Source: Minisyncoccota bacterium
Lineage (GTDB): Bacteria > Patescibacteriota > Minisyncoccia > Phycocordibacterales > Phycocordibacteraceae
Assembly (NCBI GenBank): GCA_041664265.1
Contig: JBAYLD010000002.1
Location: forward strand, 35,505 to 99,504
Direction: 5' to 3'
Length of the DNA: 64,000 nt
The notes beneath the pieces are model-generated. The model had not been told where the DNA came from. It saw only the letters and a list, made by a program, of their open reading frames with translations, and did not search any database. This document shows, in pieces, positions 6,236 through 39,951 of the stretch. A program made the translations under genes and the position numbers. Position 1 is the first letter of the stretch; each line of letters opens with the position of its first letter.

Positions 6236-6245
6236 ATTTTTTCGT

Positions 6246-7034: not shown

Positions 7035-7552
7035 GGCGTGGTTTTGAAATACGCGACCACGGATGCGCCGGTGTCAAAATCGACGTAGACGCTATTGACG
7101 GCGAAATCAAAGGTACCGTTTCCGTCATCGCGATACAGTTCAACGGCATATGATCGGCCCGGCTCGGTCGCCCGCAGAAGCTGCACAGGCACGGAGCTAC
7201 GAGGGCCATCTACGCGCGCGGCGCCAAGCACGTTCCCGAGGTTGCCGCTGGTTACCTCGCGCACGGCGACCCAGACACCCGGTGGCGGCACCGTGATCGA
7301 CTCGACCATAACCACGCTACCGGAGGATTGGTCTGCCACGGATACTGCGCCGCTCTTTTCTGTACCAAGGTTGGCGTCTTGTGTGCCGGAAAGAGGAGAG
7401 TCTGCTCCCCGCTGGTCGATAGGCAAAACAGGGAGAGAGAAGTTGCCGCTGAGGAAATAGGAGCCCGCGAGCAAGGCGCCGAGCATGATTCCGGCAACGA
7501 AGGAACCGACCGAGAAGCCGAAGGTACTGGTAGAGAAAGTGTTGCGCGTCAT
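7031..7552 (-). CDS. hypothetical membrane-anchored protein
   Basis: 173-aa ORF, N-terminal TM helix; 4-nt overlaps with both neighbours. Confidence 0.45.
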   Translation of the reverse strand: MTRNTFSTSTFGFSVGSFVAGIMLGALLAGSYFLSGNFSLPVLPIDQRGADSPLSGTQDANLGTEKSGAVSVADQSSGSVVMVESITVPPPGVWVAVREVTSGNLGNVLGAARVDGPRSSVPVQLLRATEPGRSYAVELYRDDGNGTFDFAVNSVYVDFDTGASVVAYFKTTP

Positions 7553-18061: not shown

Positions 18062-19159
18062 CTAGCCGTGGAGGAATACCATCACATCGCCGTCCTTGAC
18101 GATGTAATCCTTCCCTTCTGTTCGCACTTTTGCAGTCTCGCGCGCGGCGGCCCACGAGCCGGCAGAGAGGAGATCGTCGGTCGAGACGACTTCAGCGCGG
18201 ATAAACTTATCCAAAAAGTCGTTGTGGATAGCGGCGCCGGCAACCGGCGCCGTACTCCCCGCTTGAATCGTCCACGCGCGCGTCTCGTCGGTGCCGGTGG
18301 TAAAAAATGAGATCAGCCCGAGCGTGTCATAGGCGCTGCGAATCAGACTCGCAAGCCCGTCTTCTTGGGCGCCGAATTCTTGGCGGAAGGTGTGGCGGTC
18401 TTCATCAGCGACGTCATTCAACTCACGCTCGATCGCGGCGTCGACGCGTACGTAGCGCGACCCGAGCGCTTTAATGAGCTCATACGCCCGCTCCGCGCGG
18501 CCATCTGCGAGTTCATCGAGATTGTGCCCGCCATTTTTTGTATTAAGCGCATAGAGGATCGGCTTCATGGTGAGCAGGTTTAAGGTCGCGATGCGCTTCT
18601 TCTCATCGTCGGTGATCCCCGCGTGGAGAGCGAGCTTCCCTGCAGCAAAAGTTTGTTCGAGTTTGGCAAGCACAGCATCCTCCTCGATCGCATCCTTGCG
18701 TCCGGCCTTGATGTCGCCTGCGATCTTGTCGCGGCGCTTACGCACCTGTTCGGCATCGGCGAGCGCGAGTTCCACATTGATGATCTCGATATCCTTATAG
18801 GGCTCGATAGCCTCTTCGACGTGGGTGATGTTTGGATCGTCAAAGAAGCGCACCACTTCGAGTATCGCATCTGTCTCGCGGATATTCGCGAGGAATTGGT
18901 TCCCGAGCCCCTCTCCGTCTGCGGCACCCTTCACCAGCCCCGCGATGTCTACGAACTCGATCGCCGCCGGGATCGTTTTTGCCGATTTTGACAGGTCCGC
19001 GAGCTTCTCGAGCCGCGCATCCGGCACACCGACCACACCCACTGATGGGTCGATGGTGCAGAATGGATAATTCTCCGCCGGCACCGACGCCTTCGTGAGC
19101 GCGTTAAAGAGCGTGGACTTCCCCACGTTCGGCAATCCGACAATGCCTATCTTCAGCAT
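18062..19159 (-). CDS. ychF: ribosome-binding ATPase YchF (Obg-family GTPase)
   Basis: GIVGLPNVGKSTLFNALT G1 motif, NxxE, TGS-like C-terminus; start at MLKIGIVG. Confidence 0.85.
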   Translation of the reverse strand: MLKIGIVGLPNVGKSTLFNALTKASVPAENYPFCTIDPSVGVVGVPDARLEKLADLSKSAKTIPAAIEFVDIAGLVKGAADGEGLGNQFLANIRETDAILEVVRFFDDPNITHVEEAIEPYKDIEIINVELALADAEQVRKRRDKIAGDIKAGRKDAIEEDAVLAKLEQTFAAGKLALHAGITDDEKKRIATLNLLTMKPILYALNTKNGGHNLDELADGRAERAYELIKALGSRYVRVDAAIERELNDVADEDRHTFRQEFGAQEDGLASLIRSAYDTLGLISFFTTGTDETRAWTIQAGSTAPVAGAAIHNDFLDKFIRAEVVSTDDLLSAGSWAAARETAKVRTEGKDYIVKDGDVMVFLHG

Positions 19160-19216
19160 GTTACCCACTATTGCCTTTTTCTATTCAAATTTCAAGCCCA
19201 AGAATATTCAACTTAT

Positions 19217-19261
19217 GACAAAAAAGAAAGGACCTAACAAGTTTTAAGCTTGTCAGGTCCT
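19217..19261 (-). terminator. rho-independent terminator closing the AT-rich operon
   Basis: AGGACCTGACAAG-CTTAAAAC-TTGTTAGGTCCT then TTCTTTTTTGT on minus strand. Confidence 0.6.
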
Positions 19262-19301: not shown

Positions 19302-20111
19302 TCACACCTGTGTCTTCCTTACCAAGGCGAAACCATCGGTCTGAAGCAGGATGCCTTTCTTTCGTTCGATGTAACTTAAGATATCTTCTTGAATGTCCTT
19401 GGGGTATTCTCCCCATCGCTTATTCAAGAAAAATTCGACGATTGAAATTACGTCTCGCATATTGCCCGCTATTGGCAAGTGTAATTCTGAATTGGCACTG
19501 CATGTTGATACTTCTATCGATCTGGTTTTGGCCAATTCATAGAATATATCGAGTGCGCTATCGATGGTTAAAGAATGATAACTTTCTTTCATTAACCGGG
19601 ATTTGAATGTAGATCTGAATTCGTGAATGTCATCATTTTTTCTTAAAACAACAACTAGACAACCATCAGAATTCAGCATGTCCAACATCCTCTTGTAAAT
19701 TCGCGGCAACACATCTCGTGCAAACGGAAGATGCGATACCAAGATTACATCGAATGAATTACTCGGCACAAAATCATCAAAAGTAGAGGGATTAATTTCT
19801 ACTTCAGCATACGGAGGAAATTGCTTTGCAATCAATCGCAATCGTTTTATTAAATCCTTGCTCGGCTCAAGCAAAGTTATGCTTACTCTTTTAAGTCGCC
19901 GAGCTCTGATTTTATTTAACGACAACCGAAGATATTCGCCATTTCCTGAACCAATGTCCAAAAGATTCAAATTATCTCGATTGAGTAATTTCCTTAGCAG
20001 ATTCGCTAGCACCGCTGATGATTTTTCCTTTTCGCTGGTGTACTTCAAGAATGTTTCGAAGACCGACTCTTCTTGTTTATCAAGATATTCGAATCCAACG
20101 TCTTTCCCCAT
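19302..20111 (-). CDS. class I SAM-dependent methyltransferase
   Basis: motif I LLDIGSGNGEY; AT-rich codon usage unlike flanks. Confidence 0.65.
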   Translation of the reverse strand: MGKDVGFEYLDKQEESVFETFLKYTSEKEKSSAVLANLLRKLLNRDNLNLLDIGSGNGEYLRLSLNKIRARRLKRVSITLLEPSKDLIKRLRLIAKQFPPYAEVEINPSTFDDFVPSNSFDVILVSHLPFARDVLPRIYKRMLDMLNSDGCLVVVLRKNDDIHEFRSTFKSRLMKESYHSLTIDSALDIFYELAKTRSIEVSTCSANSELHLPIAGNMRDVISIVEFFLNKRWGEYPKDIQEDILSYIERKKGILLQTDGFALVRKTQV

Positions 20112-20221
20112 GACATTTCACCTCCTTCCATTTTATTTAACCCAACTAATTACAAGTTATGGATGGGCGTAAAATAGAAAGGGTGCACCATTACTGATGC
20201 ACCCCACTTAATCCAATAAGA

Positions 20222-21316
20222 TCATGGCGTTCGGATTCCGCGAAGCGGTTCCTCCCCAAAGGTTAGGAACCACAGACTTCGATAATCCTCCCAAACCAAT
20301 GGTCTCATGCTTGTTCCGACAAACAGCTGTTCCAGAATCTGCCTTGCCTCAAGATAATACTCAAGGCGATTGGCTTCTGGATCTTTAAGAGTTGCCTCAT
20401 GGTACTTATGCATTTGCAGAGTATTGATGGTAGGGAACTTGTTAATGTGATCCTTGAAGCAACCGAAGTGGTACTCCATCACATCCAATGGTTCCGTCCC
20501 GACAATGTAGGCGAAATTCACTTCGTACCCTAATCCTCGCGCGAAATCCATGGATTCGCAGGCGTCTCGGAGACTGACCGCCCTCTTCTCCTTTCGCAAC
20601 AGACCTCGACGTTCGAACGTTTCTAATGAGAAGCAGATGCCAAATGGCTGAATCTCGGCGATACTTCTCAACCAATCTTTGCTTATGATCTGCGAACCGA
20701 GATAAAAGATCTTGCCAACAAACTTGTATTCCATCGAGACCTTCTTTAAGGTACGAAGAAATCGGCAAAGATCTTCGCTATTTTCATAGCAACCGGTCAC
20801 AATCGAGATCTGCACCAGATGAGACAAGTCGGTCAATCCGTACTTGGACATCCACCCTTCAAAGAATTCTCTCAGATCGAAGTCGGTTATCAGTTTCTTC
20901 CTATCATAAGGAACCTGATATGCCGCATAACAGAACTTGCAGCCGTGGCATGAAGTTCTGGAATTCGGATTGATATTGAGCGATGTCCCTTTCCTCCGTG
21001 GATAGTGGGAATCGCAAATATCTTCAGTCGGTCCTATCGCCTGTCCGATAACCGTATTCTGCAAAAGCAGAATATTATTGTCGACTACAGTGAAGGGACT
21101 CTCCTGATTAATCGGCAACGCGAAGTAATAATCAAGTTCCTCTCGCTGTTTAGCGTAATTAAACAGATTGCTGTCGGCCAAATGAAGGGCCATCCGCATC
21201 CTGTTGTAATCACACTCGAAGTTAACACCGTTGATGTTAAGAGCGATGAACAATACATCTTCCAGAGGTATGTTATACCTCTCCGCAAGCCGCACAACCG
21301 TGTTGATTTCTAACAT
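20222..21316 (-). CDS. hypothetical protein with CxxCxxC motif (possible Fe-S enzyme), unknown family
   Basis: 364 aa; SCHGCKFCY is not the canonical radical-SAM CxxxCxxC; no other motif recognised. Confidence 0.45.
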   Translation of the reverse strand: MLEINTVVRLAERYNIPLEDVLFIALNINGVNFECDYNRMRMALHLADSNLFNYAKQREELDYYFALPINQESPFTVVDNNILLLQNTVIGQAIGPTEDICDSHYPRRKGTSLNINPNSRTSCHGCKFCYAAYQVPYDRKKLITDFDLREFFEGWMSKYGLTDLSHLVQISIVTGCYENSEDLCRFLRTLKKVSMEYKFVGKIFYLGSQIISKDWLRSIAEIQPFGICFSLETFERRGLLRKEKRAVSLRDACESMDFARGLGYEVNFAYIVGTEPLDVMEYHFGCFKDHINKFPTINTLQMHKYHEATLKDPEANRLEYYLEARQILEQLFVGTSMRPLVWEDYRSLWFLTFGEEPLRGIRTP

Positions 21317-21319
21317 GAC

Positions 21320-22168
21320 TCATAATCCTCCTTTTGAATTTGTCACTACCTCGAGGAAATGATTCCTTCTTTGACAGATGATTAGAGTAGTCAGTACCGG
21401 TACCGAGATAGCGCCGTGCCGTTTAACGATTTCTGAGATGTGTCCAAAGAATCTTGAACGCTTCTCTTCCTCGACTTCAACGATCTTGGGAAAGGTATTG
21501 AGTAGTTTCGGATATGTCTGATCGTCATAGTTGTACACGGTCAGATATTTCCTCAAGTAAATCGGGTAGAACAAGGGATTTGCGACAACCTCTTGTTCTC
21601 TGTGATTTAACTTCAATAACACACCCTCATTCACGTTGTTTACAGTCGATTCATCGGGATAGACATCCGGTAGAAACTCATGATAGGCGTTGTTGATTTC
21701 AGCAGTAACCGATGAATCGTCCTGAAAGAAACTATTCCAGACCAGGATGAGATGACCCGACTTATTGAGCACATCGGAAACTTGTTTGAACTTGTCCCCC
21801 TCGCTCAACCAATGAAATGCTGTGAAGGCCAGAATCGCGTCAAACTTTTCCGCAACCCGGAAATTCTCGAATGTATCCTCGATAATCTCGACATTCTTGA
21901 ACGAACTCGTCTGTTCCCTGGCAATTGCTGCCAGACGTGCGCCCGGTTCGATAGCAACAATATGACAACCGAGCTTAGCAAGCTCGATGGTCGCAATGCC
22001 ACTGCCAGCTCCGATTTCCATTAAACGAGAACTACCATCAATCCCACATTGCTCTTTGATATCTGAGAACAGCGCAACCGGATATCCCGGACGAACTGAA
22101 TGATAATTGTCAGCATATACGTCAAATGACGCATTGAAGATATTTTTCCCTTTGAACATCATAGTCAT
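21320..22168 (-). CDS. class I SAM-dependent methyltransferase
   Basis: motif I LMEIGAGSGIAT; 4-nt overlap with upstream gene. Confidence 0.7.
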   Translation of the reverse strand: MTMMFKGKNIFNASFDVYADNYHSVRPGYPVALFSDIKEQCGIDGSSRLMEIGAGSGIATIELAKLGCHIVAIEPGARLAAIAREQTSSFKNVEIIEDTFENFRVAEKFDAILAFTAFHWLSEGDKFKQVSDVLNKSGHLILVWNSFFQDDSSVTAEINNAYHEFLPDVYPDESTVNNVNEGVLLKLNHREQEVVANPLFYPIYLRKYLTVYNYDDQTYPKLLNTFPKIVEVEEEKRSRFFGHISEIVKRHGAISVPVLTTLIICQRRNHFLEVVTNSKGGL

Positions 22169-22749
22169 TCTCCTTTTATGGTTGATTGATGTAAGAACTG
22201 CATGAACCGATCTTTAACATCGACCAATTCTAATGGCCGACGGAAGTCACGGCGTCCACCGAGTTCAATTTTTGCAACAATGAATCCCGGTCCTTGCCTG
22301 AAATGCAATATAGCACGCCTTAGATCTTTCTGATTATTTACCACCTGTACATACCGATAACCAACAGTAAGTGCTAGTTGATCGAGATGAGCGGAATCAG
22401 ACATTGATTTTTCTTCGTTACAAGAACCATAAGCACTATTATCAATAACGATATGAAGCAAATTTTCAGGTTGCTTATTGCCTATCGTTACAATAGAGCC
22501 AAGATTCATCAACAAACTTGCATCACCATCAATTATTACCACCCGCTTAGTGGGGCACGAGATAGCTAATCCCAACCCAATTGATGATGCGAGTCCCAAT
22601 GAACCGGGAACATAGATATTTCTGACTGAGTCGAATTTTTCGAAAACCTCTCGAGAAATCAACCCCGTTGTTGAAATATTGACTGTATCCGCCGGATCAA
22701 TCACTCTCATAATGGTTTCAATTGCTTCTTTTCTTTTCATCTTTGCCAC
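22165..22749 (-). CDS. TPP-dependent 2-oxoacid decarboxylase, beta subunit (ComE / phosphonopyruvate decarboxylase C-half-like)
   Basis: TPP-binding IDGDASLLMNLGS...N motif. Confidence 0.65.
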   Translation of the reverse strand: MAKMKRKEAIETIMRVIDPADTVNISTTGLISREVFEKFDSVRNIYVPGSLGLASSIGLGLAISCPTKRVVIIDGDASLLMNLGSIVTIGNKQPENLLHIVIDNSAYGSCNEEKSMSDSAHLDQLALTVGYRYVQVVNNQKDLRRAILHFRQGPGFIVAKIELGGRRDFRRPLELVDVKDRFMQFLHQSTIKGE

Positions 22750-23276
22750 CCCCTCTTTAGTAACAAGAATGTAGGAAGTTTGACCTTACGCATTTTTTGG
22801 AACATTGAAGTGACAAGTATCGGTATGTCTTGCCCTCCAAAAACCACAAATGGTAAACCAAATGACCGAAGCAAAGCTTCAGTTGCCCCACCTGTTGTTA
22901 AGTGTTGCACCGCATCTTCACCCTCGCATCCACGATAAGATACCGTAAAAAAGACCGGGATCTTATAAGGAACAAGTAGAGACGCAATGTCGTTTGAAGC
23001 AGCGAAAAGACCGGAGTTTTGCATATAGACGATGGGAGTTTTGCCAGCAAAGTATGCGCCAGCCACTAACCCAACGGCTTCAGACTCGCGGTTAGCAGAC
23101 ACATGAAGCATCTTAGGCTCATCAATAAAATTCTTAATGATATGCCTTAACACTCCACATGGAACTCCAGATACAAAATCGACACCAAATTTTAAGAACT
23201 GCTGGTGCATTTGATCTGCTTTTTCGCTACGTCTTCCATCCAGCACATTGAATACACTTCCTTCATCTGTGTTCAC
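22737..23276 (-). CDS. TPP-dependent 2-oxoacid decarboxylase, alpha subunit (ComD / Ppd N-half-like)
   Basis: GVDFVSGVPCGVL pyrimidine-binding domain; GTG start with RBS AAAGGAGGAAAT. Confidence 0.65.
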   Translation of the reverse strand: MNTDEGSVFNVLDGRRSEKADQMHQQFLKFGVDFVSGVPCGVLRHIIKNFIDEPKMLHVSANRESEAVGLVAGAYFAGKTPIVYMQNSGLFAASNDIASLLVPYKIPVFFTVSYRGCEGEDAVQHLTTGGATEALLRSFGLPFVVFGGQDIPILVTSMFQKMRKVKLPTFLLLKRGWQR

Positions 23277-23329
23277 GTTTATTTCCTCCTTTTTATTTTA
23301 TTTAGTATGTCAAAGAGCCCCTGTCTTCC

Positions 23330-23365
23330 TTGAGAACATCTCAAGGGCGGTTGCATTTTATCATT
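23330..23365 (-). promoter_or_regulatory. candidate promoter TTGACA-N17-ATAAAA (with TG) for the decarboxylase/MT sub-operon
   Basis: minus-strand TTGACAAATCTAATAATTAAATGATAAAAT in the 141-nt gap after the ABC gene. Confidence 0.35.
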
Positions 23366-23418
23366 TAATTATTAGATTTGTCAATACATTGCTCTGTTAT
23401 ACAAAATGTGTTGATATT

Positions 23419-25239
23419 TTATTCATGCAATCCTATATGCAACTCATAGAGATGACGATAGATGCCTCCTTCGATCAGCACGAGATCATCGTGGCTACCG
23501 CTTTCAGCAATATGACCTTCCTTTAGAACGAGTATCTTCCCCGCCTTGCGTACCGTCGAGAGTCGATGCGCGATGATGAATGTTGTGCGATTGTGCATGA
23601 GCTTCTCGAGTGCACTCGTAACGAAACGTTCGGTTTCTGAATCAAGTGCCGAGGTCGGCTCGTCAAGAATGAGAATCTCTGGATCACGTAAAATTGCGCG
23701 CGCAATGGCGATTCTTTGCTTTTGCCCCACCGAGAGTTTAATACCGCGCTCGCCGACGAGTGTCTGATATCCATTCGGCAAATCTGTGATGTACTCATCT
23801 ATGTGTGCCTCGCGTGCGGCGTGTGCAATTTGTTCTTCTGTTGCATCAAACATCCCGTAGCAAATGTTGTTACGAATAGTATCATTGAAAAGCGCAACTT
23901 CTTGCGGGACGACAGCGATGCGTGTACGCAAGTCAGTAAGGTCCCAATGGCGTGTATCGAGACCATCAACCATCACACTGCCTGCACTTGGGAAATAATA
24001 TCCAGACACTAGCGAGACGGTCGTACTCTTCCCTCCGCCGGACTCGCCGACGAGTGCGATGACTTCACCTGGGTTAACAGTAAATGACATGTTAGAGAGC
24101 ACCTCGGCCTGATCGGCGTCATAATGAAACGAAACATGATCAAACGCGATTCGCCCTGAATGTTCAGTCGGTACTGTGGCGGTAATGGGGTGATAATTTT
24201 CTTCTTTCTCGTTAAAAACTCTTTCGAGTTGGCCAGCTGCGGTCAAACCATTCTGGACCATCTGCCAACTTTGACCGAGAGCGACAAAAGGCCCAAAGAA
24301 CATGAGAGCATACCCATTCAGAGCGATAAGCTCTCCAACGGTCATTGAGCCATTCGCTACTGAGCTCGCCGAAGCAACAAAAACGGTAAGCTGTGTGAGA
24401 AATACAATAGTACGTTGAAAGAATCCCGCATTGCTCCATATTCGGTCAAGGGAATGCCAAAGCTGGCCAGTTTTCCCTGCGAGATTTTTCTGCACCTTGG
24501 CAATCTCGTACTTTTCTGCGGCTGCCTGCTTTACTGAAGCAACTTGTTGTACTGCTGCCGCTGCATCGTCCCAATATTCATTCCACGATTCATGAGCGAT
24601 GTGATCAATTGTGGCAACCGGTCGTAACATAAATACGAGTACCACGCCATAGAAAAGAACACCGGCTGCTAGCACACCAGCCATCGGAAGACTTATTGTT
24701 GCCGCAAGAATAATGCCGATTGCAACCGAGAGGAGTTGCGGCCCAATCTGAATTGCGTTCTGCATGATCGACGAAATGCGCCATCCTGCCATACTAATCT
24801 TAGAAAGTACCCCGTTTATGTGTTCATTGGAGTGATATGTAAGCGGAAGTTTGAAAAGATGAGCGAATCCTTCGGTCTGAATAGCAAGATGGGACTGCAC
24901 ATCAATCGTGCGACGTTTGCGATCCATCACCCAGTCGATGCTATTTGCCACAACCTGAATGACCGCCCAAATAGCGAGCATGAGTGCCCAAAATGGAAAT
25001 GTGCCGCCGTTTGTTTTTCCTTGCGAAAGACTGATGAGCGCATCAAAAAATCGCCCAGTGATGTAAGGTACTGCGCCATTAGCAACTGCAGAAATAAAAC
25101 CAAGAAAACCAAGTACAAAAAATTCGTTACGATAACGGCGAGTGTGCCGCCAGATACCTCGTATACCCTCGCGCATAGACACCGGCTCTGTCCTTATTTC
25201 TTCAACTGCATCCTCGTCGGAATCCTTAATATCGATCAT
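23419..25239 (-). CDS. ABC exporter, fused permease + ATPase (MsbA-like type I)
   Basis: six N-terminal TM helices; Walker A GESGGGKST; signature LSVGQKQRIAIARA; Walker B ILILDEPTSALD. Confidence 0.85.
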   Translation of the reverse strand: MIDIKDSDEDAVEEIRTEPVSMREGIRGIWRHTRRYRNEFFVLGFLGFISAVANGAVPYITGRFFDALISLSQGKTNGGTFPFWALMLAIWAVIQVVANSIDWVMDRKRRTIDVQSHLAIQTEGFAHLFKLPLTYHSNEHINGVLSKISMAGWRISSIMQNAIQIGPQLLSVAIGIILAATISLPMAGVLAAGVLFYGVVLVFMLRPVATIDHIAHESWNEYWDDAAAAVQQVASVKQAAAEKYEIAKVQKNLAGKTGQLWHSLDRIWSNAGFFQRTIVFLTQLTVFVASASSVANGSMTVGELIALNGYALMFFGPFVALGQSWQMVQNGLTAAGQLERVFNEKEENYHPITATVPTEHSGRIAFDHVSFHYDADQAEVLSNMSFTVNPGEVIALVGESGGGKSTTVSLVSGYYFPSAGSVMVDGLDTRHWDLTDLRTRIAVVPQEVALFNDTIRNNICYGMFDATEEQIAHAAREAHIDEYITDLPNGYQTLVGERGIKLSVGQKQRIAIARAILRDPEILILDEPTSALDSETERFVTSALEKLMHNRTTFIIAHRLSTVRKAGKILVLKEGHIAESGSHDDLVLIEGGIYRHLYELHIGLHE

Positions 25240-25283
25240 CTAGGCAGTATACACCTCGGTTCTTCGAGCAGAAACGAAGAATA

Positions 25284-25769
25284 TTATAGCGTTTCCTTCA
25301 GCGCCAACGCCCGTTCAATATAGCGTTCGCCATCCTCTCCCCAATCAAAATATTGCTTGATGTCTTTCGGGTCTATGAGTTTTATTTCGGTAACATCGCC
25401 GTCGGGATCTGAGACGAATTCCCCTATCGGTTCAACAATACAGACGGAACGGGTTTGTAGGGTTCGATCCGGCTCGAAGGCCTCCAAATAACCAAAAACC
25501 TTTTGCTTTAGGACGCGCATATTTGTCTCTTCAAACACCTCGCGCACAACTGCTTCTTCAAAGGTTTCGCGGGGTTCTACTCCACCTCCGGGCGGTCCCC
25601 AGGATTTTTTCTCTTCAGCGTACACAACAACGAGCTTGTCGCCACAAAAACAATAGGCGTGTACTCCCTTTATTTTTTCTCCATTCAGCTCTTCAGGCGA
25701 ATCAATATCGCGGTACACAAATGGTATGGTTTGTTTGTCGCGGTTGGTTAGTGTTGAGTGAATTTCCAT
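25284..25769 (-). CDS. NUDIX hydrolase (paralog of 45200-45697)
   Basis: GPPGGGVEPRETFEEAVVREVFEETN Nudix box; ~75% identical to second copy. Confidence 0.75.
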   Translation of the reverse strand: MEIHSTLTNRDKQTIPFVYRDIDSPEELNGEKIKGVHAYCFCGDKLVVVYAEEKKSWGPPGGGVEPRETFEEAVVREVFEETNMRVLKQKVFGYLEAFEPDRTLQTRSVCIVEPIGEFVSDPDGDVTEIKLIDPKDIKQYFDWGEDGERYIERALALKETL

Positions 25770-25953
25770 TTTGCGAATGATTATACTTGATAACTATAAC
25801 GGTAGCGATTTAAGAGCCGGCCGCTTAGTTTTCCTCTTTCGGCCACCTCGCGGGACTGTTCGACGGTCCGGCGGCGGAAGTTCAATAGTGAATGTAAAAG
25901 GAATACCTTTACCCCTGTCTCCAAAATATTGGTTCATATGGGACAAACGATTC

Positions 25954-26541
25954 CTATTTTGAGCATATGATATGGGCATTTTCGCTTGTTTCGGGTAAGA
26001 AATCAACTACGCGCCGTATGAAATTGAATCCGGCATCATTCGTGTATTCAATTTCAAAAATGTCCGGATACGAAACCGTAAAGAAAAAATCCTTTGGGAA
26101 ACCGAATTGCTGGACACAAAACTCACTCAGCACCGTCCCGTGTGTACTAACCGCGACCGCACTCGCAGGATGTCTCTCGGCTATTTTCTTTAGCGTCGAA
26201 AAAAAGCGATGATTCGCTTCATCGATACTCTCACCGCCTTTGAATTTAAAATCTCTGTTCCCAACAATTTCTGTATGGAAGAGCGCTGCGTCGCCACGGT
26301 AGTCGAGCTCAACAAGCCCACTGTCTTCTATGGCAGGGAGCGATACCTTCGCGGATAATGGGGCGATCGTCTGTAACGCTCTCGGTAAGCGAGAACTATA
26401 CAGACAATCAATCGGTTGTTCCCAGAGATCGGCCATCTGTACGGCTTGAGTCGTGCCGCGCGACGAAAGATCGATATATCTGTTGGTGGCAGAGTCCCGA
26501 GTGTATTCAACGGACGCATGCCGTATGAGAAACAGCCGCAT
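25954..26541 (-). CDS. histidine phosphatase family protein (phosphoglycerate-mutase-like)
   Basis: LIRHAS catalytic RHG-type motif near N-terminus. Confidence 0.6.
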   Translation of the reverse strand: MRLFLIRHASVEYTRDSATNRYIDLSSRGTTQAVQMADLWEQPIDCLYSSRLPRALQTIAPLSAKVSLPAIEDSGLVELDYRGDAALFHTEIVGNRDFKFKGGESIDEANHRFFSTLKKIAERHPASAVAVSTHGTVLSEFCVQQFGFPKDFFFTVSYPDIFEIEYTNDAGFNFIRRVVDFLPETSENAHIICSK

Positions 26542-28983: not shown

Positions 28984-29898
28984 ATGTGTTCTTTGAAAGT
29001 TCTGAAGATTGATCTCATCAACCGTTGTAACGCAGCTTGTCCCTTCTGCCCGTATCACGCCGCACGAGTGCATCAAGCACCGCTCTCGCGATTGTCTATA
29101 ACCGACGTGCAAGGAATCGTTCTCGGTTGCAGGCGATTGGGGATCACCCCCCAGTTTAAATTCTCGGGGCGAGGCGAGGCGACGGTCCATCCGGATTTTC
29201 CTGAGATGGTACGACTCGCTAGTGCAGAAGGGTTCCAGACAAGACTCATCACCAACGGCCTTCTGCTCCGTACGCACGCTTCGGTACTCGCCGAGTGCGG
29301 TACCGACGTCGTCGTATCGATCCACGGCAATGAAGCAACTCATGATGCGGTGATCGGTAAGCGCGGAGCGCTCTGCCTCGCGGAGGCCGGTATCGAAGCA
29401 GTGGCGGCTCGCGGTGCATCAGTGACCGTCGGGATCATCCTCACGCCGGATACCATCGAGGATCTGGAGGAGATCGGAGCACGCTATGCATCTCAAGAAA
29501 AAGTGCGCGTGCGCGTTCATCACAACTTCGACACGCACGTTCGAGAGTCGCTGTCACCGCACGCGGTACAAGCGGCACTTGCCCGACTCAAAGAGCGGTT
29601 TCCGAACATCCGTACCGTTCCCCATGTACCTGAAGAGTTGTTGGATCGTTATTACAGCACGAACGGGTTCGTACTCCAGCCGCACGCTTGTACGCATTTT
29701 ATCGAGGAGGTAGAGATCTCTTCTGACGGTATGGTGAGCGTGTGCGGAGCCGCTCCCTTCGGCAACATACGCAACGAGCCGTTCGAGCATCTTGTAGCAA
29801 GCAACTCACGCACGTCCTTTATGGCGACTATCGCAGGCGAGCTGCGATCTGCCGATGGGCTCGCAGCGACGCGCTGCGATCGCTGCTGCTACCAGTAA
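28984..29898 (+). CDS. radical SAM protein with C-terminal Cys-rich auxiliary-cluster domain
   Basis: CNAACPFCPY CxxxCxxC; C-terminal Cys cluster ending CDRCCYQ; RBS AAAGGAGG. Confidence 0.75.
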   Translation: MCSLKVLKIDLINRCNAACPFCPYHAARVHQAPLSRLSITDVQGIVLGCRRLGITPQFKFSGRGEATVHPDFPEMVRLASAEGFQTRLITNGLLLRTHASVLAECGTDVVVSIHGNEATHDAVIGKRGALCLAEAGIEAVAARGASVTVGIILTPDTIEDLEEIGARYASQEKVRVRVHHNFDTHVRESLSPHAVQAALARLKERFPNIRTVPHVPEELLDRYYSTNGFVLQPHACTHFIEEVEISSDGMVSVCGAAPFGNIRNEPFEHLVASNSRTSFMATIAGELRSADGLAATRCDRCCYQ

Positions 29899-29974: not shown

Positions 29975-31042
29975 ATGAGCAGCGGCACGTACACAGAAGC
30001 TGATATCGAGAGACTCATACCCCCGCGAGTCAGCGTCGATCCTACCGCCGTCACCTGCATCAAACAAGCATGGGCATTCGCACAAAGGGTGCATGCCGGG
30101 CAACGCCGCCGTTCGGGCGAGCCGTATACTGAACACCTTTTTCAAACAACGAAGATGCTTGGCGCGCTCGACATGGGCGCACCGACACTCATCGCAGGTA
30201 TCCTGCACGACACGCTTGAAGACACGCAAACGTGCGAGGCGGATCTCGCCGAAGCCTTTGGGACTGATGTCGCCTTCCTCGTTGCTGGCCTGACAAAATT
30301 GAAGCGGGAGAAATCAAAACAAGGACGGCACGAAGGGACGCCCTATTATGCAAACAATTTGCGCAAGCTCCTTCTCGCAGCAGCACAGGATGTGCGGATC
30401 CTTATCATCAAGCTCTGCGACCGGCTGCACAATATGCAAACGCTCTCTCATATGCCTGCCGAAACACAAAAGCGCGTCTCACTCGAGACGCGCAATGTGT
30501 ATGTGCCGGTTGCTGAACGGCTCGGCATGCATACCATCAAGCGAGAACTTGAGGATCTGGCCTTTGCCTATCTTGAGCCGGACTCGTTTAAAAAGGCTTG
30601 TCGTCTCTTCAAGAAGTGTAAATCGGAACACGAAATAAGCATCATCGAGGCGACCGCCACGCTCCAATTAGAGCAGGCGATACACGCACGCATACCCTTC
30701 CGTATCGAACAGCGAGACAAAGGCATTTGCAGTTTTTATCAGAAACTTGAACGGAAGGAATGGGAACTTTCACAGATAAACGACATCATCACGCTGCAGG
30801 TCATCGTCCCTAACGCCGATGATTGCTATATCATGCTCGGGAAGATTCACGGCCTCTGGCATCCTATTCATGGCAAGTTTAAAGACTATATCGCCTTCCC
30901 CAAGCCAAACGGATTCCAATGTCTGCGTACGACAGTCGGTGCGGAATCGTTGGGTATTCTCGAAATACAGATTTATTCAGACGATATGTATGAACGCGCG
31001 AAGTACGGATTCGCGGTTCTCCTCGCCCGCAACGAATACTAA
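29975..31042 (+). CDS. small RelA/SpoT-family (p)ppGpp hydrolase/synthetase (HD + synthetase domains, no TGS/ACT)
   Basis: HD motif ILHDTLEDT; synthetase motif KDYIAFPKPNGFQCLRTTV; start at MSSGTYTE. Confidence 0.65.
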   Translation: MSSGTYTEADIERLIPPRVSVDPTAVTCIKQAWAFAQRVHAGQRRRSGEPYTEHLFQTTKMLGALDMGAPTLIAGILHDTLEDTQTCEADLAEAFGTDVAFLVAGLTKLKREKSKQGRHEGTPYYANNLRKLLLAAAQDVRILIIKLCDRLHNMQTLSHMPAETQKRVSLETRNVYVPVAERLGMHTIKRELEDLAFAYLEPDSFKKACRLFKKCKSEHEISIIEATATLQLEQAIHARIPFRIEQRDKGICSFYQKLERKEWELSQINDIITLQVIVPNADDCYIMLGKIHGLWHPIHGKFKDYIAFPKPNGFQCLRTTVGAESLGILEIQIYSDDMYERAKYGFAVLLARNEY

Positions 31043-31046
31043 CGTT

Positions 31047-31238
31047 TCAGCTCGTGGGCAACTCAACAAAGAAGGTTGACCCCTTATCTCTCCCCTCTGA
31101 CTCGGCGCGGATCGTGCCGCCATGCGCCTCGGCGATCTGCTTCGCGATATAGAGGCCGTCATCGCGAGCGCCGAGAGATGCTTTATGCTCATAGTATATG
31201 CTATATTTCCGCATATATGACTGAAGTTCTGTTCGCAA
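31047..31238 (-). pseudogene. chimeric fragment carrying duplicated last 32 codons of the histidine kinase gene
   Basis: C-terminal [31 protein letters not shown] identical to HK 32072-33727. Confidence 0.5.
31063..31159. repeat. 97-bp direct repeat copy 1 (HK 3' end)
   Basis: matches 32088-32184 with one mismatch (31079 c / 32104 g). Confidence 0.85.
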
Positions 31239-31771
31239 TTGGCATGTCTATTATCTTTATATTCAGTCTCTTCGCTTTATTGTTTACGCTTTTGAGACTC
31301 AGAGATTCTCTTTTTGTAGAAATCCCATTTATTTCAACACGAAGACGGGCTGTTGAATCAGTGGTAAACGCTCTTTCTCTCTCAGACAAATCAGTACTTT
31401 ATGATCTTGGCTGTGGCAATGCCGAGGTTCTTAAAACGGCAATACAAAAAACGCCTAGAGCGCGGGGTGTTGGTATTGAACAAGGCTATATTCCTTTCAT
31501 TCTTTCAAAGGTCAAAACGAGAAAAATGCCAATTATTATTCACCACCAAGACATATTTGATACTGACCTATCCAATGCGTCGCACATTTATTGCTATTTG
31601 TCAGATTCAATGATGCAAAAACTATCGCACAAGTTTTTGCATGAATGTAAGAAAGGAGCGCGTATCGTTTCTTGCGATTTTCAGGTACCCAACATACCAC
31701 TAATTCAAACTATTTCGTTAGAAGCCAAGAATGATACACTGGCCCGTTCTCTATACATTTATCAGATATAA
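31217..31771 (+). CDS. membrane-anchored class I SAM-dependent methyltransferase
   Basis: TM helix [20 protein letters not shown] then motif [13 protein letters not shown]; start uncertain (alternative 31178). Confidence 0.5.
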
Positions 31772-31774
31772 AGT

Positions 31775-31803
31775 AACAGCCACACTTGGTTGCGTGTGGC
31801 TGT
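31775..31803. terminator. bidirectional hairpin between convergent genes
   Basis: AACAGCCACAC-TTGGTTGC-GTGTGGCTGTT. Confidence 0.55.
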
Positions 31804-31813
31804 TAATGAGCTG

Positions 31814-31987
31814 TTATTCACTATCTACATAACCTATGTTTTTCATGTGTCTACCCTCACATGCAGGACATATCCCACCGTCTGGGTCACATTCCTCGCA
31901 ATGAACACAGCCACAATCCCTGCACACCCAAATCCTCGCACTATCTTCGTTATTGCCACACCTTGGACACCGATCGAATGTCGCCAT
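31814..31987 (-). CDS. small zinc-ribbon protein with four CxxC pairs
   Basis: MATFDRCPRCG...CRDCGCVHCEECDPDGGICPACEG; RBS GGGAGGAAAG upstream of ATG. Confidence 0.5.
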   Translation of the reverse strand: MATFDRCPRCGNNEDSARIWVCRDCGCVHCEECDPDGGICPACEGRHMKNIGYVDSE

Positions 31988-32071
31988 TTTCTTTCCTCCC
32001 ATTTCAAAATTGTTAAAACAACACACAAACCCTCTAACACTATCTACTTACAGTATAACATGTCCGCCCTG

Positions 32072-33727
32072 TTATACAACAGGAAATTCAACAAAGAAGG
32101 TTGAGCCCTTATCTCTCCCCTCTGACTCGGCGCGGATCGTGCCGCCATGCGCCTCGGCGATCTGCTTCGCGATATAGAGGCCGTAGCCCGTAGAGTGGAC
32201 GTTTACCCGCTGCGAATCCTTACCGTGCCCGCCCTCGGTGAAGAGGTGCTTCTTGTCGTCTTCATCGATCCCGATGCCGGTATCCTTCACCGCAAACACA
32301 AGCTTGCCGTCATCGCGCTTGAGTGAGACGGCGATAGAGCCTGACGACGTGTAATTGATCGAGTTGTCAATAATATTGCGTAGCACGTGGTCGCTCAACT
32401 GCGCTTTATCCCCCGTCATCTGATACGAAGCACCATCGGCAACAAACGTGAGTGTGAGTCCCTTCCGCTCTGCGGCCGCCCTCGCCTTCTCGACTGCCTC
32501 TCTCGCGAGCGCTTCCAGATCAAACGGCTCCTTCACATACGTCACAGCGCCCTTCTTCAAGTTTGACGCTTTGAGGATGTTGGACACCGAATCAGCGCCC
32601 TGGCGCGACTCGATGAGTGCTTGATCCACAAATGGCTTCATCCCGTCTGGCGGCGTGCCAAAATCTCCCTGCGAGATCGCGGCGAACGCTCCCGCATCCT
32701 TCGTCAAGAATCCCTTAACCTCGTGCCCAATGAAGTGCAGCAGCCCCTCCTGTCGCTCGTTGGTGTCTTGGAGCTCTTCTGCAAGCTTTTGGATCTTCTC
32801 ACGCTGAGCAATCTCGCGCTTAACACCGCGCACCAACAAAATGCCGGCGATAAGCACGAAAATGAGGGTTACCGAGGTGATAATTCGAACATCCTCAACC
32901 GTGCGTATAAAGAGGAGTGAGAGTACCGAGAGCCAGAACGCTGCCACTAATGCTTGTGCGCCAATCAAGCGCACGTTGAAAGCTCGATACTGCACGATAA
33001 GGTAGGCGAGGAACGCAACAAATACAGGCGCCCCGAAGAGTCCGTATCTTCCTATAGACCAATCTTGAGAGAACACTTCGACAATGTTCCCGATAGAAAA
33101 ACTGAGTAAAAATAAAACGATACCGACCGCGAGCAGAGCAGTTCGCTTTTTTACTACAGATTCTTTTGCCTTTATTAAGACAAAGATGGCGAAACCGATA
33201 ATGAGCAGCGTATATAGAATTTCTATTGCGTATCCGTACGTTGCAAGTATTCCTTCAGAGGCCGCGCGATCACAATTCGATATGTCATATCCCAACAAAC
33301 CAAGTCTCGTTGAAGCGAAAACAAATGTCGGTAAAAGTGGGAAGAGAAAAAGAATCTTTTGTAAGACTGAAAGATCTTTTTTAAAGACATATACATAAAA
33401 GAAGTAGAACGAGAAGAAATATACGAGTGGTTCACACACTATCTCCAGAGCCCAAAAGAACATTGTGTAAGAAGGAAATTCCGTCGCCCAAAGTACCAAG
33501 TCACTAAAAACCCAGAGCGAAAAGAAGATTGAGGTAAGCAATAGAAGGATACTCGAAAATTCCTTCCGGCCATAGATAAAGATAAAGAGCGCGATTAGTA
33601 GTGTCGGGATGATCGAACCAAGGTGTGAGTAATAAATAAAAGACTCAAAGACGTTGTCCGAAAATACGAGAAATTGGGATGGCGCCCATTCGCACGCTTG
33701 TATGAGGTTGAAGACTTCGGGTGTCAT
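32072..33727 (-). CDS. sensor histidine kinase with polytopic N-terminal membrane domain
   Basis: H-box LLHFIGHEVKGF; HATPase_c G-boxes [16 protein letters not shown]. Confidence 0.8.
   Translation of the reverse strand: MTPEVFNLIQACEWAPSQFLVFSDNVFESFIYYSHLGSIIPTLLIALFIFIYGRKEFSSILLLLTSIFFSLWVFSDLVLWATEFPSYTMFFWALEIVCEPLVYFFSFYFFYVYVFKKDLSVLQKILFLFPLLPTFVFASTRLGLLGYDISNCDRAASEGILATYGYAIEILYTLLIIGFAIFVLIKAKESVVKKRTALLAVGIVLFLLSFSIGNIVEVFSQDWSIGRYGLFGAPVFVAFLAYLIVQYRAFNVRLIGAQALVAAFWLSVLSLLFIRTVEDVRIITSVTLIFVLIAGILLVRGVKREIAQREKIQKLAEELQDTNERQEGLLHFIGHEVKGFLTKDAGAFAAISQGDFGTPPDGMKPFVDQALIESRQGADSVSNILKASNLKKGAVTYVKEPFDLEALAREAVEKARAAAERKGLTLTFVADGASYQMTGDKAQLSDHVLRNIIDNSINYTSSGSIAVSLKRDDGKLVFAVKDTGIGIDEDDKKHLFTEGGHGKDSQRVNVHSTGYGLYIAKQIAEAHGGTIRAESEGRDKGSTFFVEFPVV
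32088..32184. repeat. 97-bp direct repeat copy 2 (native 3' end of HK gene)
   Basis: see 31063-31159. Confidence 0.85.
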
Positions 33728-33894
33728 AGTTGGGAGTATGCAGAAGGATCAAACTGGTCAGGAATCTCATCTTCAGTCTGAAAATAGGTGAAATCCTGCC
33801 GCACCATATATCGGTAATAAGCCGCACCAACAGAGAGCCCTACAAGCACAAAAAGAACCACTGTGTAGATAATGCTCGATCTGCCTATTTGCAT
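33724..33894 (-). CDS. 56-aa single-TM protein, stop overlaps HK start (ATGA)
   Basis: MQIGRSSIIYTVVLFVLVGLSVGAAYYRYMVRQDF...; own TGGTATACT -10 at 33904-33912; not in ORF track (<60 aa). Confidence 0.4.
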   Translation of the reverse strand: MQIGRSSIIYTVVLFVLVGLSVGAAYYRYMVRQDFTYFQTEDEIPDQFDPSAYSQL

Positions 33895-33916
33895 ATGCTA
33901 ATTAGTATACCACTAC

Positions 33917-33960
33917 AGAAAAGTAAAGGGCCCAGCAAGTTTTACAACTTGCCAGGCCCC
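33917..33960 (-). terminator. rho-independent terminator after Hsp70-like gene
   Basis: GGGGCCTGGCAAG-TTGTAAAAC-TTGCTGGGCCC then TTTACTTTTCTG on minus strand. Confidence 0.6.
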
Positions 33961-33979
33961 ATTTCAACATTTCGCAGTT

Positions 33980-35260: not shown

Positions 35261-35387
35261 TCCATTCTCCTTTCTTTTACGTTATTGAGTTATTCAAGGT
35301 TCAATTGTCCTGTCCTCACTGCATCCAAAGAGAGCGTATCATAGAATGTGCATGTTGGCAAGACCCGTCCTTGCGTATCAAATATAA

Positions 35388-35402
35388 ATATGGTATAAAC
35401 TA
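35388..35402 (+). promoter_or_regulatory. extended -10-like TATGGTATAAA upstream of B12-radical SAM operon
   Basis: about 65 nt upstream of ATG 35467; RBS GGGAAGGAG. Confidence 0.35.
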
Positions 35403-35466
35403 TACAGTCTAGTTCGTTCTTTGAAAGCCCAATAAACGTCAAATAAAATTAGGGAAGGAGTCAGCA

Positions 35467-37026: not shown

Positions 37027-37039
37027 AGGAGGTATTGAA

Positions 37040-38176: not shown

Positions 38177-38198
38177 CTCATTGGTTCTTACATCAAAA

Positions 38199-38238
38199 AG
38201 GTTAGGCAATGTTATATGTTGCCTAGCCTTTTTTGTTT
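38199..38238 (+). terminator. rho-independent terminator
   Basis: AGGTTAGGCAA-TGTTATATG-TTGCCTAGCCT then TTTTTTG. Confidence 0.7.
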
Positions 38239-38246
38239 GTGATAAT

Positions 38247-39945: not shown

Positions 39946-39951
39946 CTTAAT

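Follow-up and report, generated by a model that had tools for sequence, protein, structure and literature searches.

Within the analysed stretch of 64,000 nucleotides (the window), part of a Candidatus Paceibacterota (CPR) genome, six genes in the same orientation lie between ychF and a NUDIX gene. All six minus-strand open reading frames were recovered where the sequence-only reading had placed them, with domains backed by Pfam and NCBIfam, and both of the SAM methyltransferases it had named are class I SAM enzymes. The genes and signals are as follows:

18062-19168: ychF, flanking gene
19229..19261, minus strand: intrinsic-terminator-like hairpin after MT2 and upstream of ychF, with a 13-pair stem and then TTCTTTTTT
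19302..20111, minus strand: accessory class I SAM methyltransferase MT2, 269 aa (Pfam Methyltransf_23/12), with its own RBS (GGAAGGAGG)
20180..20205, minus strand: intrinsic-terminator-like hairpin and T-run closing the four-gene core, with an 11-pair stem (6 GC pairs) and then TTCTATTTT, 17 nt past the radical SAM stop
20222..21316, minus strand: predicted divergent radical SAM enzyme, 364 aa, with CX2CX2C (C123, C126, C129)
21320..22168, minus strand: class I SAM methyltransferase MT1, Tam/Tmt1/HvrF-like, 282 aa (Pfam Methyltransf_25/11), overlapping the stop codon of TPP-beta
22165..22749, minus strand: TPP subunit beta (PP domain), ComE/RhiF-like, 194 aa (NCBIfam and PDB matches), overlapping the TPP-alpha gene by 13 nt; gene callers start it 3 codons downstream
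22737..23276, minus strand: TPP subunit alpha (PYR domain), ComD/RhiE-like, 179 aa, with a GTG start after AAGGAGGA
23328..23346, minus strand: short hairpin where the predicted 5' UTR begins, CCTTGAGA-tgt-TCTCAAGG, read from the sequence, with no Rfam family match
23355..23384, minus strand: predicted sigma-70-like promoter for the core cassette (TTGACA and TAAAAT with an 18-nt spacer, the -10 being preceded by TG)
23419..25239, minus strand: ABC exporter, an MsbA-like half-transporter (TM domain then NBD), 606 aa (Pfam ABC_membrane and ABC_tran)
25284-25769: NUDIX gene, flanking gene

Base composition and extent of the operon

The claim that these genes are AT-richer than their flanks is borne out by the computed values, with 39.3-48.2 % GC per gene in the island, compared with 58.4 % for ychF and 53.9 % for leuS, a mean of 50.8 % (sd 6.0) for the genes of the window, and GC3 z-scores as low as -2.1. 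The low GC is not confined to the island: it carries on across the NUDIX and His-phosphatase genes as far as about 26.5 kb, and a second, larger block of low GC spans 31-45.7 kb. The window is therefore a mosaic, in which the AT-rich island is not unique. No tRNA, integrase or flanking repeat, the marks of a classical island, was seen at the locus. The suggested horizontal acquisition is supported mainly by the patchy cross-domain distribution of the genes and by a GC mismatch in Treponema (28 % vs 42 %).

The predicted promoter, which matches the consensus at 11 of 12 positions, falls in the 142 nt that separate the ABC gene from TPP-alpha and overlaps the element previously placed at 23330-23365, while the terminator at 19261-19229 agrees with that placed at 19217-19261. 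A consensus scan found 11 sites, with 13.4 expected from shuffled sequence, and the predicted sites are therefore credible through their position alone. Both signals that were said to bracket the locus have a predicted counterpart, but the promoter is internal and a second strong terminator stands at 20205-20180; the signals thus bracket a four-gene unit, with MT2 separate, rather than the six-gene span. This unit, TPP-alpha, TPP-beta, MT1 and the radical SAM gene, is an operon running from 23384 to 20180 on the minus strand, with a predicted promoter, overlapping or closely spaced genes and a terminator directly 3' of the radical SAM gene.

The ABC exporter and MT2 are lineage-specific additions outside the conserved cassette, and the proposed six-gene operon shrinks to four genes. 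Only two related loci, L016 and L018, have a homologue of the exporter (about 59 % identical) no more than 10 kb from the cassette, and there it is encoded on the opposite strand; MT2 adjoins the cassette in only six others (L007, L008, L010, L013, L022 and L038), in two of them on the opposite strand. The exporter, which scores under every NCBIfam equivalog cut-off, is probably co-transcribed with the NUDIX and His-phosphatase genes that lie upstream. A PDB search with MT2 gave no informative relative. Export genes are present in few related loci only; the Treponema operon terminates in ABC-2 transporter genes.

Conservation and distribution of the four-gene unit

About 22 Patescibacteria loci, set in unrelated neighbourhoods, keep the order TPP-alpha, TPP-beta, MT1, radical SAM, with identities of 47-80 %, and MT1 and the radical SAM gene are syntenic in 31 loci. 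In 27 loci the radical SAM gene has 3 kb or more of flanking sequence on each side; 26 of these encode a TPP enzyme, and 24 a recognisable methyltransferase, no further than 4.5 kb from it. The sole well-flanked locus with no TPP enzyme nearby belongs to a Micrarchaeota genome (L035) and, in addition to those 24, carries a different methyltransferase; in the Treponema operon no methyltransferase was recognisable. The constant pairing is that of the radical SAM family with a TPP enzyme, nearly always joined by a methyltransferase, and the module centres on CPR bacteria and DPANN archaea, i.e. on ultra-small symbionts. The methyltransferase is Tam-like or, in a second radical SAM subfamily, UbiE/TehB-like, so the methylation chemistry may differ among subfamilies.

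The sequences are very strongly conserved from one CPR class to another (50-80 %), unlike fast-evolving defence genes. An anti-phage defence or other conflict system that would use the radical SAM enzyme as prokaryotic viperins do is extremely unlikely, since IMG/VR viral contigs also hold no relatives and PADLOC recognised neither the radical SAM nor the TPP proteins, its only hits being generic ones to ABC and methyltransferase domains. A small-molecule biosynthetic role, as had been proposed, is the best reading, and one relative lies in an NRPS-like cluster (L046), where the radical SAM gene and its TPP partner are surrounded by genes for two adenylation enzymes, two carrier domains, a BtrH-like transferase, a methyltransferase, an ABC ATPase and phosphatases of the HAD and PHP types.

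The TPP enzyme and its replacement

The best PDB matches of the two TPP subunits are RhiE (9iz3_A, E 1.9e-15) for alpha and RhiF (9iz3_B, E 6e-27) for beta, which form the split phosphonopyruvate decarboxylase of the rhizocticin cluster (PDB 9IZ3; PMC12141560). Like RhiE/RhiF and ComD/ComE (the sulfopyruvate decarboxylase of coenzyme M synthesis), the enzyme consists of PYR and PP subunits of about 180-190 aa, but it is constantly accompanied by a radical SAM enzyme and a methyltransferase, and neither PEP mutase nor com genes lie nearby. The NCBIfam models score alpha at 104.9 bits for sulfopyruvate decarboxylase alpha (cut-off 147.95) and 99.7 bits for Ppd, and beta at 155.4 bits for Ppd (cut-off 312.5) and 146.4 bits for ComE (cut-off 221.5). 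The ComE/Ppd E-values of 1e-43 to 1e-45, against 1e-6 or weaker for acetolactate synthase, place the subunits in the ComDE/Ppd clade, so that the resemblance noted earlier holds and a grouping with acetolactate synthases was not seen. The ComDE and Ppd assignments proper both fail, every curated cut-off being missed. The enzyme appears catalytically competent, as judged from the catalytic-Glu region 'RESEAVG' of alpha, which is kept across 23 homologues, and from the diphosphate/Mg motif of beta ('DGDASLLMN...DN', of the form GD(G/A)...N), which is also kept.

In other lineages the TPP partner takes different forms. It is a fused Ppd-like protein of 394 aa in one locus (L041), and a phosphoketolase-like protein of 684-751 aa in gut Clostridia MAGs, L027, L046 and Treponema lecithinolyticum, a type absent from the window itself. 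The phosphoketolase-like partners score 419-513 bits, compared with cut-offs of at least 777 for phosphoketolases. In Clostridia, Treponema and L046 they have all three domains of xylulose-5-P/fructose-6-P phosphoketolase (XFP) and keep most of its catalytic motifs (GHWG, GDGE, YEAF), but are shorter than the about 800 aa of XFP, and the Clostridia-type proteins lack three residues of the WRQDHNGF-HQ loop. This replacement of the decarboxylase argues against a simple tailoring pathway for a 2-oxoacid-derived metabolite, as had been suggested, and together with the scores below the cut-offs it makes both phosphonopyruvate and sulfopyruvate improbable as the substrate.

The fosfomycin (Fom2/Fom3) and phosphinothricin (PhpK) clusters bring together a Ppd-type decarboxylase, radical SAM methylases and methylation, as the cassette does. 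To our knowledge, PEP mutase is always the starting point of such phosphonate clusters, whose radical SAM methylases depend on B12. Some versions of the cassette also have a nucleotidyltransferase-type accessory, which is GrpB, as opposed to the cytidylyltransferase domain of Fom1 in fosfomycin synthesis. A phosphonate pathway here would use a true split Ppd, as in RhiEF or Fom2, with PEP mutase encoded elsewhere and with the radical SAM enzyme and methyltransferases tailoring the phosphonate as Fom3 and PhpK do. It would fit RhiEF as the best solved relative, the slightly better match of TPP-beta to Ppd than to ComE (155 vs 146 bits), and the presence of HvrF, from the pantaphos phosphonate cluster, among the relatives of MT1. 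We nevertheless regard it as very unlikely, because the summed Ppd-model score (about 255 bits) stays below the 312.5 cut-off, the radical SAM enzyme lacks a domain for binding B12, and the phosphoketolase-like replacement has no phosphonate role. In addition, neither the window nor any of the 42 related loci (703 kb in total) contains the PEP mutase motif EDKx5NS, although ppm and ppd normally lie side by side (PMC8942020), and phosphonate synthesis is thus not supported.

A ComDE-type enzyme could instead deliver sulfoacetaldehyde for a coenzyme-M-like or a sulfolactate/taurine-type metabolite, in line with the NCBIfam ComD/ComE matches (E 4e-30 and 8e-43), the two-subunit architecture, the JGI annotation of alpha as sulfopyruvate decarboxylase and a malate/lactate dehydrogenase gene that adjoins the radical SAM gene in one archaeal locus (L029). 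Such a sulfonate pathway is highly unlikely, since both subunits fall under the equivalog cut-offs, the ComA, ComB, ComC and cysteate-synthase families are absent from all Pfam-annotated neighbourhoods, the hosts are fermentative symbionts, neither methanogens nor alkene oxidisers, and the phosphoketolase-like substitution would be left unexplained.

The radical SAM family and the proposed chemistry

The protein previously listed for its CxxCxxC motif is, in its predicted structure, a very divergent radical SAM enzyme and the signature gene of the cassette. The family is previously undescribed and without annotation in public databases. Its CX2CX2C motif is invariant and non-canonical, while remote members carry the canonical CX3CX2C. 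The protein scores under the Pfam PF04055 threshold and has no sequence similarity to solved radical SAM enzymes (E 2.1), so the assignment rests on the predicted structure. Compared with the full-barrel enzymes PylB, LipA, MqnE, HydG and Elp3, it has 8-16 % identity with no sequence-level match, CX2CX2C in place of CX3CX2C, and an additional N-terminal domain of 115 residues, for which a fold search found no relative and no RNA-binding fold.

These properties bear on an Elongator-like modification of nucleotides or RNA, in which the TPP enzyme would supply acetyl-TPP, the radical SAM enzyme would, as Elp3 does, convert the acetyl methyl group to a radical that attacks a pyrimidine, the methyltransferase would esterify the new carboxylate in a Trm9/CmoM-like step, and a nucleotidase or NUDIX enzyme would trim the nucleotide. 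Phosphoketolase and a beta-eliminating decarboxylase could both form acetyl-TPP without redox chemistry, which would suit this scheme. We consider it unlikely, because a dozen other radical SAM enzymes match just as well as Elp3, the N-terminal domain fits no RNA-binding fold, the radical SAM proteins are not basic (median pI 6.5), each of the neighbour genes cited is rare, and the NRPS-like setting of L046 suggests a free metabolite.

The cassette probably makes a small methylated metabolite, and no characterised pathway matches it. We slightly favour a scheme in which the four genes process a C2 unit by radical chemistry and then methylate it, with substrate, order of steps, product and export reasoned solely from the enzyme classes. 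The TPP enzyme would form a thiamine-bound two-carbon carbanion/enamine, X-CH2-C(OH)=TPP, in the window by decarboxylating a 3-substituted pyruvate and in the phosphoketolase-like versions by cleaving a ketose phosphate. A C2 intermediate shared in this manner would be one explanation for the exchange of TPP enzymes; the two versions could instead yield different compounds. The intermediate could be set free as an aldehyde or break down into acetyl-TPP or an acyl phosphate, and the radical SAM enzyme would carry out a radical C-H or C-C step on the C2 unit or its acceptor.

The methyltransferase would then cap the product. O-methylation at a carboxylate is the likeliest form of this step, because the relatives of MT1 (HvrF, Tmt1) are small-molecule carboxyl methyltransferases. 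Lastly, HAD or PHP phosphatases would strip phosphate in some loci. MT1 has the class I fold in common with the Tam/Tmt1/HvrF group, at E-values of only 1e-4 to 1e-11, and its N-terminal 'FDxxAxxYxxxRPxYP' is also found in HvrF, 4hg2 and the yeast trans-aconitate methyltransferase Tmt1. In this genome, MT2 may add a second methyl group and the neighbouring ABC transporter may export the product.

The four-gene unit and its neighbours

All six co-oriented genes that the sequence-only reading had placed between ychF (18062-19168) and a NUDIX gene (25284-25769) are present on the reverse strand, and Pfam and NCBIfam models confirm their domains. The window belongs to a contig of 126-132 kb in a metagenome-assembled genome of Candidatus Paceibacterota (Patescibacteria/CPR). 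The ABC gene encodes a half-transporter (ABC_membrane and ABC_tran, Pfam), and the two proposed methyltransferases are both class I SAM enzymes (Pfam/NCBIfam). The genes and the signals around them are listed in reading direction:

23419-25239, (-), ABC exporter gene
23384-23355, (-), strong promoter-like site, TTGACA and TAAAAT separated by 18 nt, in the gap from the ABC gene to TPP-alpha
23328-23346, (-), perfect 8-bp hairpin, CCTTGAGA-tgt-TCTCAAGG, a few bases past the -10 element, at the start of the 5' UTR
22737-23276, (-), TPP-alpha
22165-22749, (-), TPP-beta
21320-22168, (-), methyltransferase MT1
20222-21316, (-), radical SAM gene (364 aa)
20205-20180, (-), good intrinsic terminator after the radical SAM gene
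19302-20111, (-), methyltransferase MT2, with its own ribosome-binding site
19261-19229, (-), second terminator, downstream of MT2

The four core genes (TPP-alpha, TPP-beta, MT1 and radical SAM) overlap or lie 3 nt apart, and a consensus ribosome-binding site is found downstream of the promoter hairpin. Site counts in the consensus scan were not above the shuffled expectation, and the weight given to these sites is that of their position alone. The signals may be read as delimiting a four-gene core unit. MT2 would then be transcribed separately or by read-through, and the ABC gene, which the cassette's own promoter separates from the cassette, would go with the upstream NUDIX and His-phosphatase genes. 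Rfam returned no known RNA or riboswitch at the locus (E up to 1), the promoter hairpin included, nor in seven related loci.

Comparison of loci points to the same unit. Scanning one genome for each GTDB species gave 34 loci carrying the radical SAM gene (denoted L with a number), and a metagenome scan with a narrower alignment gave four. The order TPP-alpha, TPP-beta, MT1, radical SAM is kept in about 22 Patescibacteria loci, at 47-80 % identity, and two other CPR (Patescibacteria) genomes carry the same four genes, set among unrelated genes and accompanied by neither the ABC gene nor MT2. MT2 adjoins the cassette in six of these loci. Only two other loci have an ABC homologue (59 % identical) within 10 kb, and there it is on the opposite strand, so that the exporter is not conserved with the biosynthetic genes; unrelated transporter genes do flank the versions in Treponema and in the metagenomic locus L046. 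Thus, the genes of the proposed six-gene operon are real, but the conserved unit, judged by synteny and by its own promoter and terminator, comprises four of them. The sequence around the radical SAM gene extends for 3 kb or more to either side in 27 loci. In 26 of these a TPP enzyme is encoded within 4.5 kb of that gene; 24 have a methyltransferase recognisable by BLAST, and one more has a different methyltransferase. The recurrent association is that of this radical SAM family with some TPP enzyme and usually a methyltransferase.

The radical SAM family

The CxxCxxC product had been described as an unknown cysteine-motif protein. The motif is real, with C123, C126 and C129 invariant both in an alignment of 25 diverse members and in a second subfamily of 16, but the protein can now be named: on its predicted structure it is a radical SAM enzyme, and its gene is the one that defines the cassette. 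NCBI lists a "hypothetical protein", no NCBIfam model fits, and the score against PF04055 is 17.3 bits, under the Pfam gathering threshold of 29.5, with a precomputed PF04055 match present in some homologues. Used as a profile against the PDB, the family alignment matched no chain (best E 2.1). The AlphaFold model built from the 25-member alignment is confident (pLDDT 87, pTM 0.88) and has the (beta/alpha) TIM-barrel core fold, partial or full, of radical SAM enzymes. The core family has CX2CX2C in place of the canonical CX3CX2C, whereas remote members carry CX3CX2C at the aligned position (CTSKCIFC, CPGGCVYC, CDNGCSFC, CNQKCLFC), so the three cysteines are very probably cluster ligands from whose motif one residue was deleted. 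The enzyme would be predicted to cleave SAM reductively by means of a [4Fe-4S] cluster.

The 364-aa protein has 187 detectable homologues, of which the best 120 are 52-100 % identical to it and come nearly all from Patescibacteria. The family is small, with 311 clusters among 1.84 billion representatives in an exhaustive profile search, 91 of them at E ≤1e-30. It is an unannotated family that combines a non-canonical cluster motif with an N-terminal domain that has no known fold relative. In three loci the radical SAM gene falls into two tblastn segments (L026 10001-11087, L018 1393-2483, L040 1521-2412), reflecting either frameshifts, and so cassette decay, or assembly errors.

TPP partners and candidate chemistry

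The two TPP subunits (179 and 194 aa) divide the PYR and PP domains between them and carry TPP-binding motifs, as in ComDE (sulfopyruvate decarboxylase); conservation covers the Glu region that activates TPP as well as the diphosphate/Mg motif (GD(A)...N). As had been proposed, they belong to the ComDE/Ppd clade (Ppd, phosphonopyruvate decarboxylase), with NCBIfam E-values of 1e-28 to 1e-45 compared with 1e-6 or weaker for acetolactate-synthase-type models, and JGI annotates one subunit as sulfopyruvate decarboxylase. The equivalog cut-offs are missed in every case: 104.9 versus 147.95 bits and 146.4 versus 221.5 bits for ComD and ComE (TIGR03845/TIGR03846), and 99.7 and 155.4 bits for the two halves versus 312.5 bits for Ppd (TIGR03297). 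The closest solved structure is RhiEF, the split phosphonopyruvate decarboxylase of the rhizocticin cluster (PMC12141560), which would fit a phosphonate pathway. In PMC8942020, however, the PEP mutase motif EDKx5NS is described as marking essentially all phosphonate clusters, with PEP mutase normally beside ppd; in six-frame translations of the window and 42 related loci (703 kb) no gene contains it, the single match lying outside any ORF. Pfam scans of the annotated neighbourhoods likewise gave neither ComA/B/C nor a cysteate route. Because the cut-offs are missed and neither PEP mutase nor com genes occur in the searched loci, we file the enzyme as neither ComDE nor Ppd. Of the earlier proposal on this enzyme, a split decarboxylase of that clade holds, putatively a non-oxidative decarboxylase of a 3-substituted pyruvate; neither phosphonate nor coenzyme-M-type chemistry is supported by the loci searched, and we score the phosphonate and sulfonate readings lower than the general one of a small-molecule module. 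These results caution against labelling such genes as coenzyme M or phosphonate biosynthesis.

The N-terminal motif of MT1, FDxxAxxYxxxRPxYP, is shared with HvrF of the pantaphos cluster, with 4hg2 and with the yeast trans-aconitate methyltransferase Tmt1, and MT1 also matches CmoM, which forms the methyl ester of tRNA cmo5U. These likenesses weakly favour O-methylation of a carboxylate. No informative relative was found for MT2. The CmoM match would also suit an Elongator-like carboxymethylation of nucleotides or RNA, which we score lower than a small-molecule module; the isoelectric point gave no clue to RNA binding. A defence role is scored lower as well, PADLOC having returned generic domain matches only.

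The TPP partner is not always of the ComDE/Ppd type. In five gut Clostridia MAGs a 684-aa phosphoketolase-like gene precedes MT1 and the radical SAM gene, its stop overlapping the MT1 start, and the same pairing of radical SAM and phosphoketolase-like genes occurs in L027, in L046 and in Treponema lecithinolyticum ATCC 700332. In the latter, the radical SAM gene (28 % identical) stands ahead of genes for a 751-aa phosphoketolase-like protein, a HAD phosphatase and an ABC-2 transporter; the 366-aa and 261-aa genes there proved not to be counterparts of the PHP and methyltransferase genes in L046. The phosphoketolase-like proteins keep most phosphoketolase motifs, score 419-513 bits against curated cut-offs of at least 777, and in the Clostridia type have lost three residues from a conserved active-site loop. 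The Treponema-type radical SAM subfamily is mostly found in CPR, where its neighbours are a UbiE/TehB-type methyltransferase and a Ppd-like enzyme, either split or fused (394 aa). In one further locus (L048 8013-11051), near a reverse-transcriptase fragment, reading with translation table 11 leaves several short ORFs in place of an intact radical SAM gene and an intact phosphoketolase-like gene. These could be pseudogenes, or the organism could use a recoded stop codon, as do some CPR lineages.

The exchange between Ppd-like and phosphoketolase-like enzymes amounts to a natural experiment of a rare kind, and it narrows the chemistry that can be proposed. Decarboxylases of the ComDE/Ppd type and phosphoketolases both form a thiamine-bound two-carbon enamine, X-CH2-C(OH)=TPP. 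Phosphoketolase then dehydrates the enamine to acetyl-TPP, an intermediate seen in PDB 9CD4 (bioRxiv 10.1101/2024.08.08.607227). With interchangeable TPP partners, we infer most simply that the pathway needs a C2 unit, an aldehyde or acyl group. The radical SAM enzyme would act on this unit or join it to an acceptor, and methylation, with dephosphorylation in some loci, would come next. It is a doubtful but consequential possibility that the two enzymes form a coupled pair, with the thiamine-bound C2 intermediate as direct radical partner. This intermediate may then be the enamine, enol-acetyl-TPP or acetyl-TPP. Genome-reduced CPR and DPANN symbionts would make a metabolite not described before, perhaps a modified nucleotide, and host-associated Treponema and Clostridia may have received the module from them by gene transfer. 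A coupled pair would account for the exchange of TPP enzymes beside one radical SAM family and, if true, would represent radical SAM/thiamine C-C bond formation of a kind not yet described. Since T. lecithinolyticum ATCC 700332 has a version of the module, it can be tested in a cultured organism.

On balance, we favour the view that the cassette is a conserved small-molecule module built on the radical SAM and TPP pair; any one specific product is quite unlikely. Small-molecule biosynthesis, as first suggested, is probably correct in view of the MT1 relatives and of the thiotemplate context of L046, which has two adenylation enzymes, two carrier domains, a BtrH-like transferase and an ABC ATPase. 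Accessory genes in related loci include PHP phosphoesterases and, in some, HAD phosphatases resembling YjjG-type nucleotidases. A GrpB/UPF0157 domain, which has a nucleotidyltransferase fold and is fused to dephospho-CoA kinase in other proteins, is fused to the radical SAM N-terminus in three clusters (P0188, P0190, P0207), and a GrpB gene adjoins the radical SAM gene in L045 (868-1410) and in the Micrarchaeota locus L035 (13276-13845). A family of basic proteins, each about 150 aa long and matched by neither Pfam nor NCBIfam models, occurs in DPANN loci; members are encoded in L027 (4892-5347), L031 (262-708) and L032 (84-614). The gene lies directly upstream of radical SAM in the last two, whereas in L027 it is on the opposite strand at a distance of about 4 kb. 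By eye, the conserved region EDGA(I/V)LIQ...GSGYNS of the family resembles a DisA-type nucleotide-binding domain. L042 contains, divergent from the radical SAM operon and adjoining a HAD phosphatase gene, a gene for a 557-aa protein (6239-7912, (-)) with a weak match to phage Mu Mom (E 1.4e-5, under the cut-off). Literature searches on the gene combination, on CX2CX2C radical SAM enzymes, on ComDE/Ppd in CPR and on the function of GrpB gave no description of this system.

Base composition, transfer and the rest of the window

The locus had been described as an AT-rich island, and computed values bear this out. Genes from 19302 to 26541 have a GC content of 39-48 %, compared with 58 % for ychF, 54 % for leuS and a window gene mean of 50.8 % (sd 6.0); the cassette has 43.0 % against 51.5 % in flanking ORFs (GC3 43 % against 55 %), with a GC3 z-score down to -2.1 in the TPP-beta gene. 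The AT-richness runs past the right border first drawn and takes in the NUDIX and His-phosphatase genes. Another and larger low-GC block lies at 31000-45700, with genes mostly at 40-48 % GC that include ones of housekeeping type (thymidylate kinase, pyrophosphatase, a UvrD-like helicase) and one for a SET-domain protein (42515-43102). This second block shows the genome to be compositionally mosaic, and GC content is weaker as evidence of transfer. We rejected a classical genomic island, as there is no tRNA within 25 kb of the locus, flanking repeats are at chance level only, and no integrase or recombinase lies in the cassette neighbourhood. The sole mobility gene seen beside any cassette copy is a large serine recombinase about 600 bp downstream of it in a gut Clostridia MAG (L025 11708-13282). 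A phage origin was also rejected, with no relatives on IMG/VR viral contigs.

Horizontal acquisition, the other part of the island proposal, is likely. The cassette is patchily distributed relative to taxonomy, in several CPR classes, DPANN archaea, gut Clostridia MAGs and T. lecithinolyticum, some automatic MAG labels (Gammaproteobacteria, Rickettsiales) being possibly wrong. Across 37 loci its GC content mostly tracks that of the host and deviates in both directions. The Treponema copy, at 28 % GC (GC3 16 %), lies amid DNA of 42 % GC and is related most closely to members from CPR, which together are good evidence of transfer, and the presence of the cassette in Aenigmarchaeota and Micrarchaeota MAGs indicates exchange between domains. 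For recent acquisition in the window itself, the evidence is confined to the GC shift. Identity of the three-enzyme module is 50-80 % across classes, and in the one comparison available (L034) the radical SAM gene is 78 % identical, versus 65 % for ychF. Such high conservation, together with exchange between bacteria and archaea, points to a metabolite that is important in the lifestyle of the organisms carrying it.

Elsewhere in the window, a 304-aa radical SAM gene (28984-29898) stands beside a RelA/SpoT-HD gene, and a B12-binding radical SAM gene (519 aa, 35467-37026) adjoins one with a SPASM domain (378 aa, 37040-38176), a pair that may form another locus for modification or biosynthesis, unrelated to the first. 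Six tRNA genes (three Ala, two Pro and one Val) lie at 50354-58350 among protein genes that include a PPDK_N/PEP-utilizer gene (51858-53744), a PHB-depolymerase-like hydrolase and a SWIB-domain protein.
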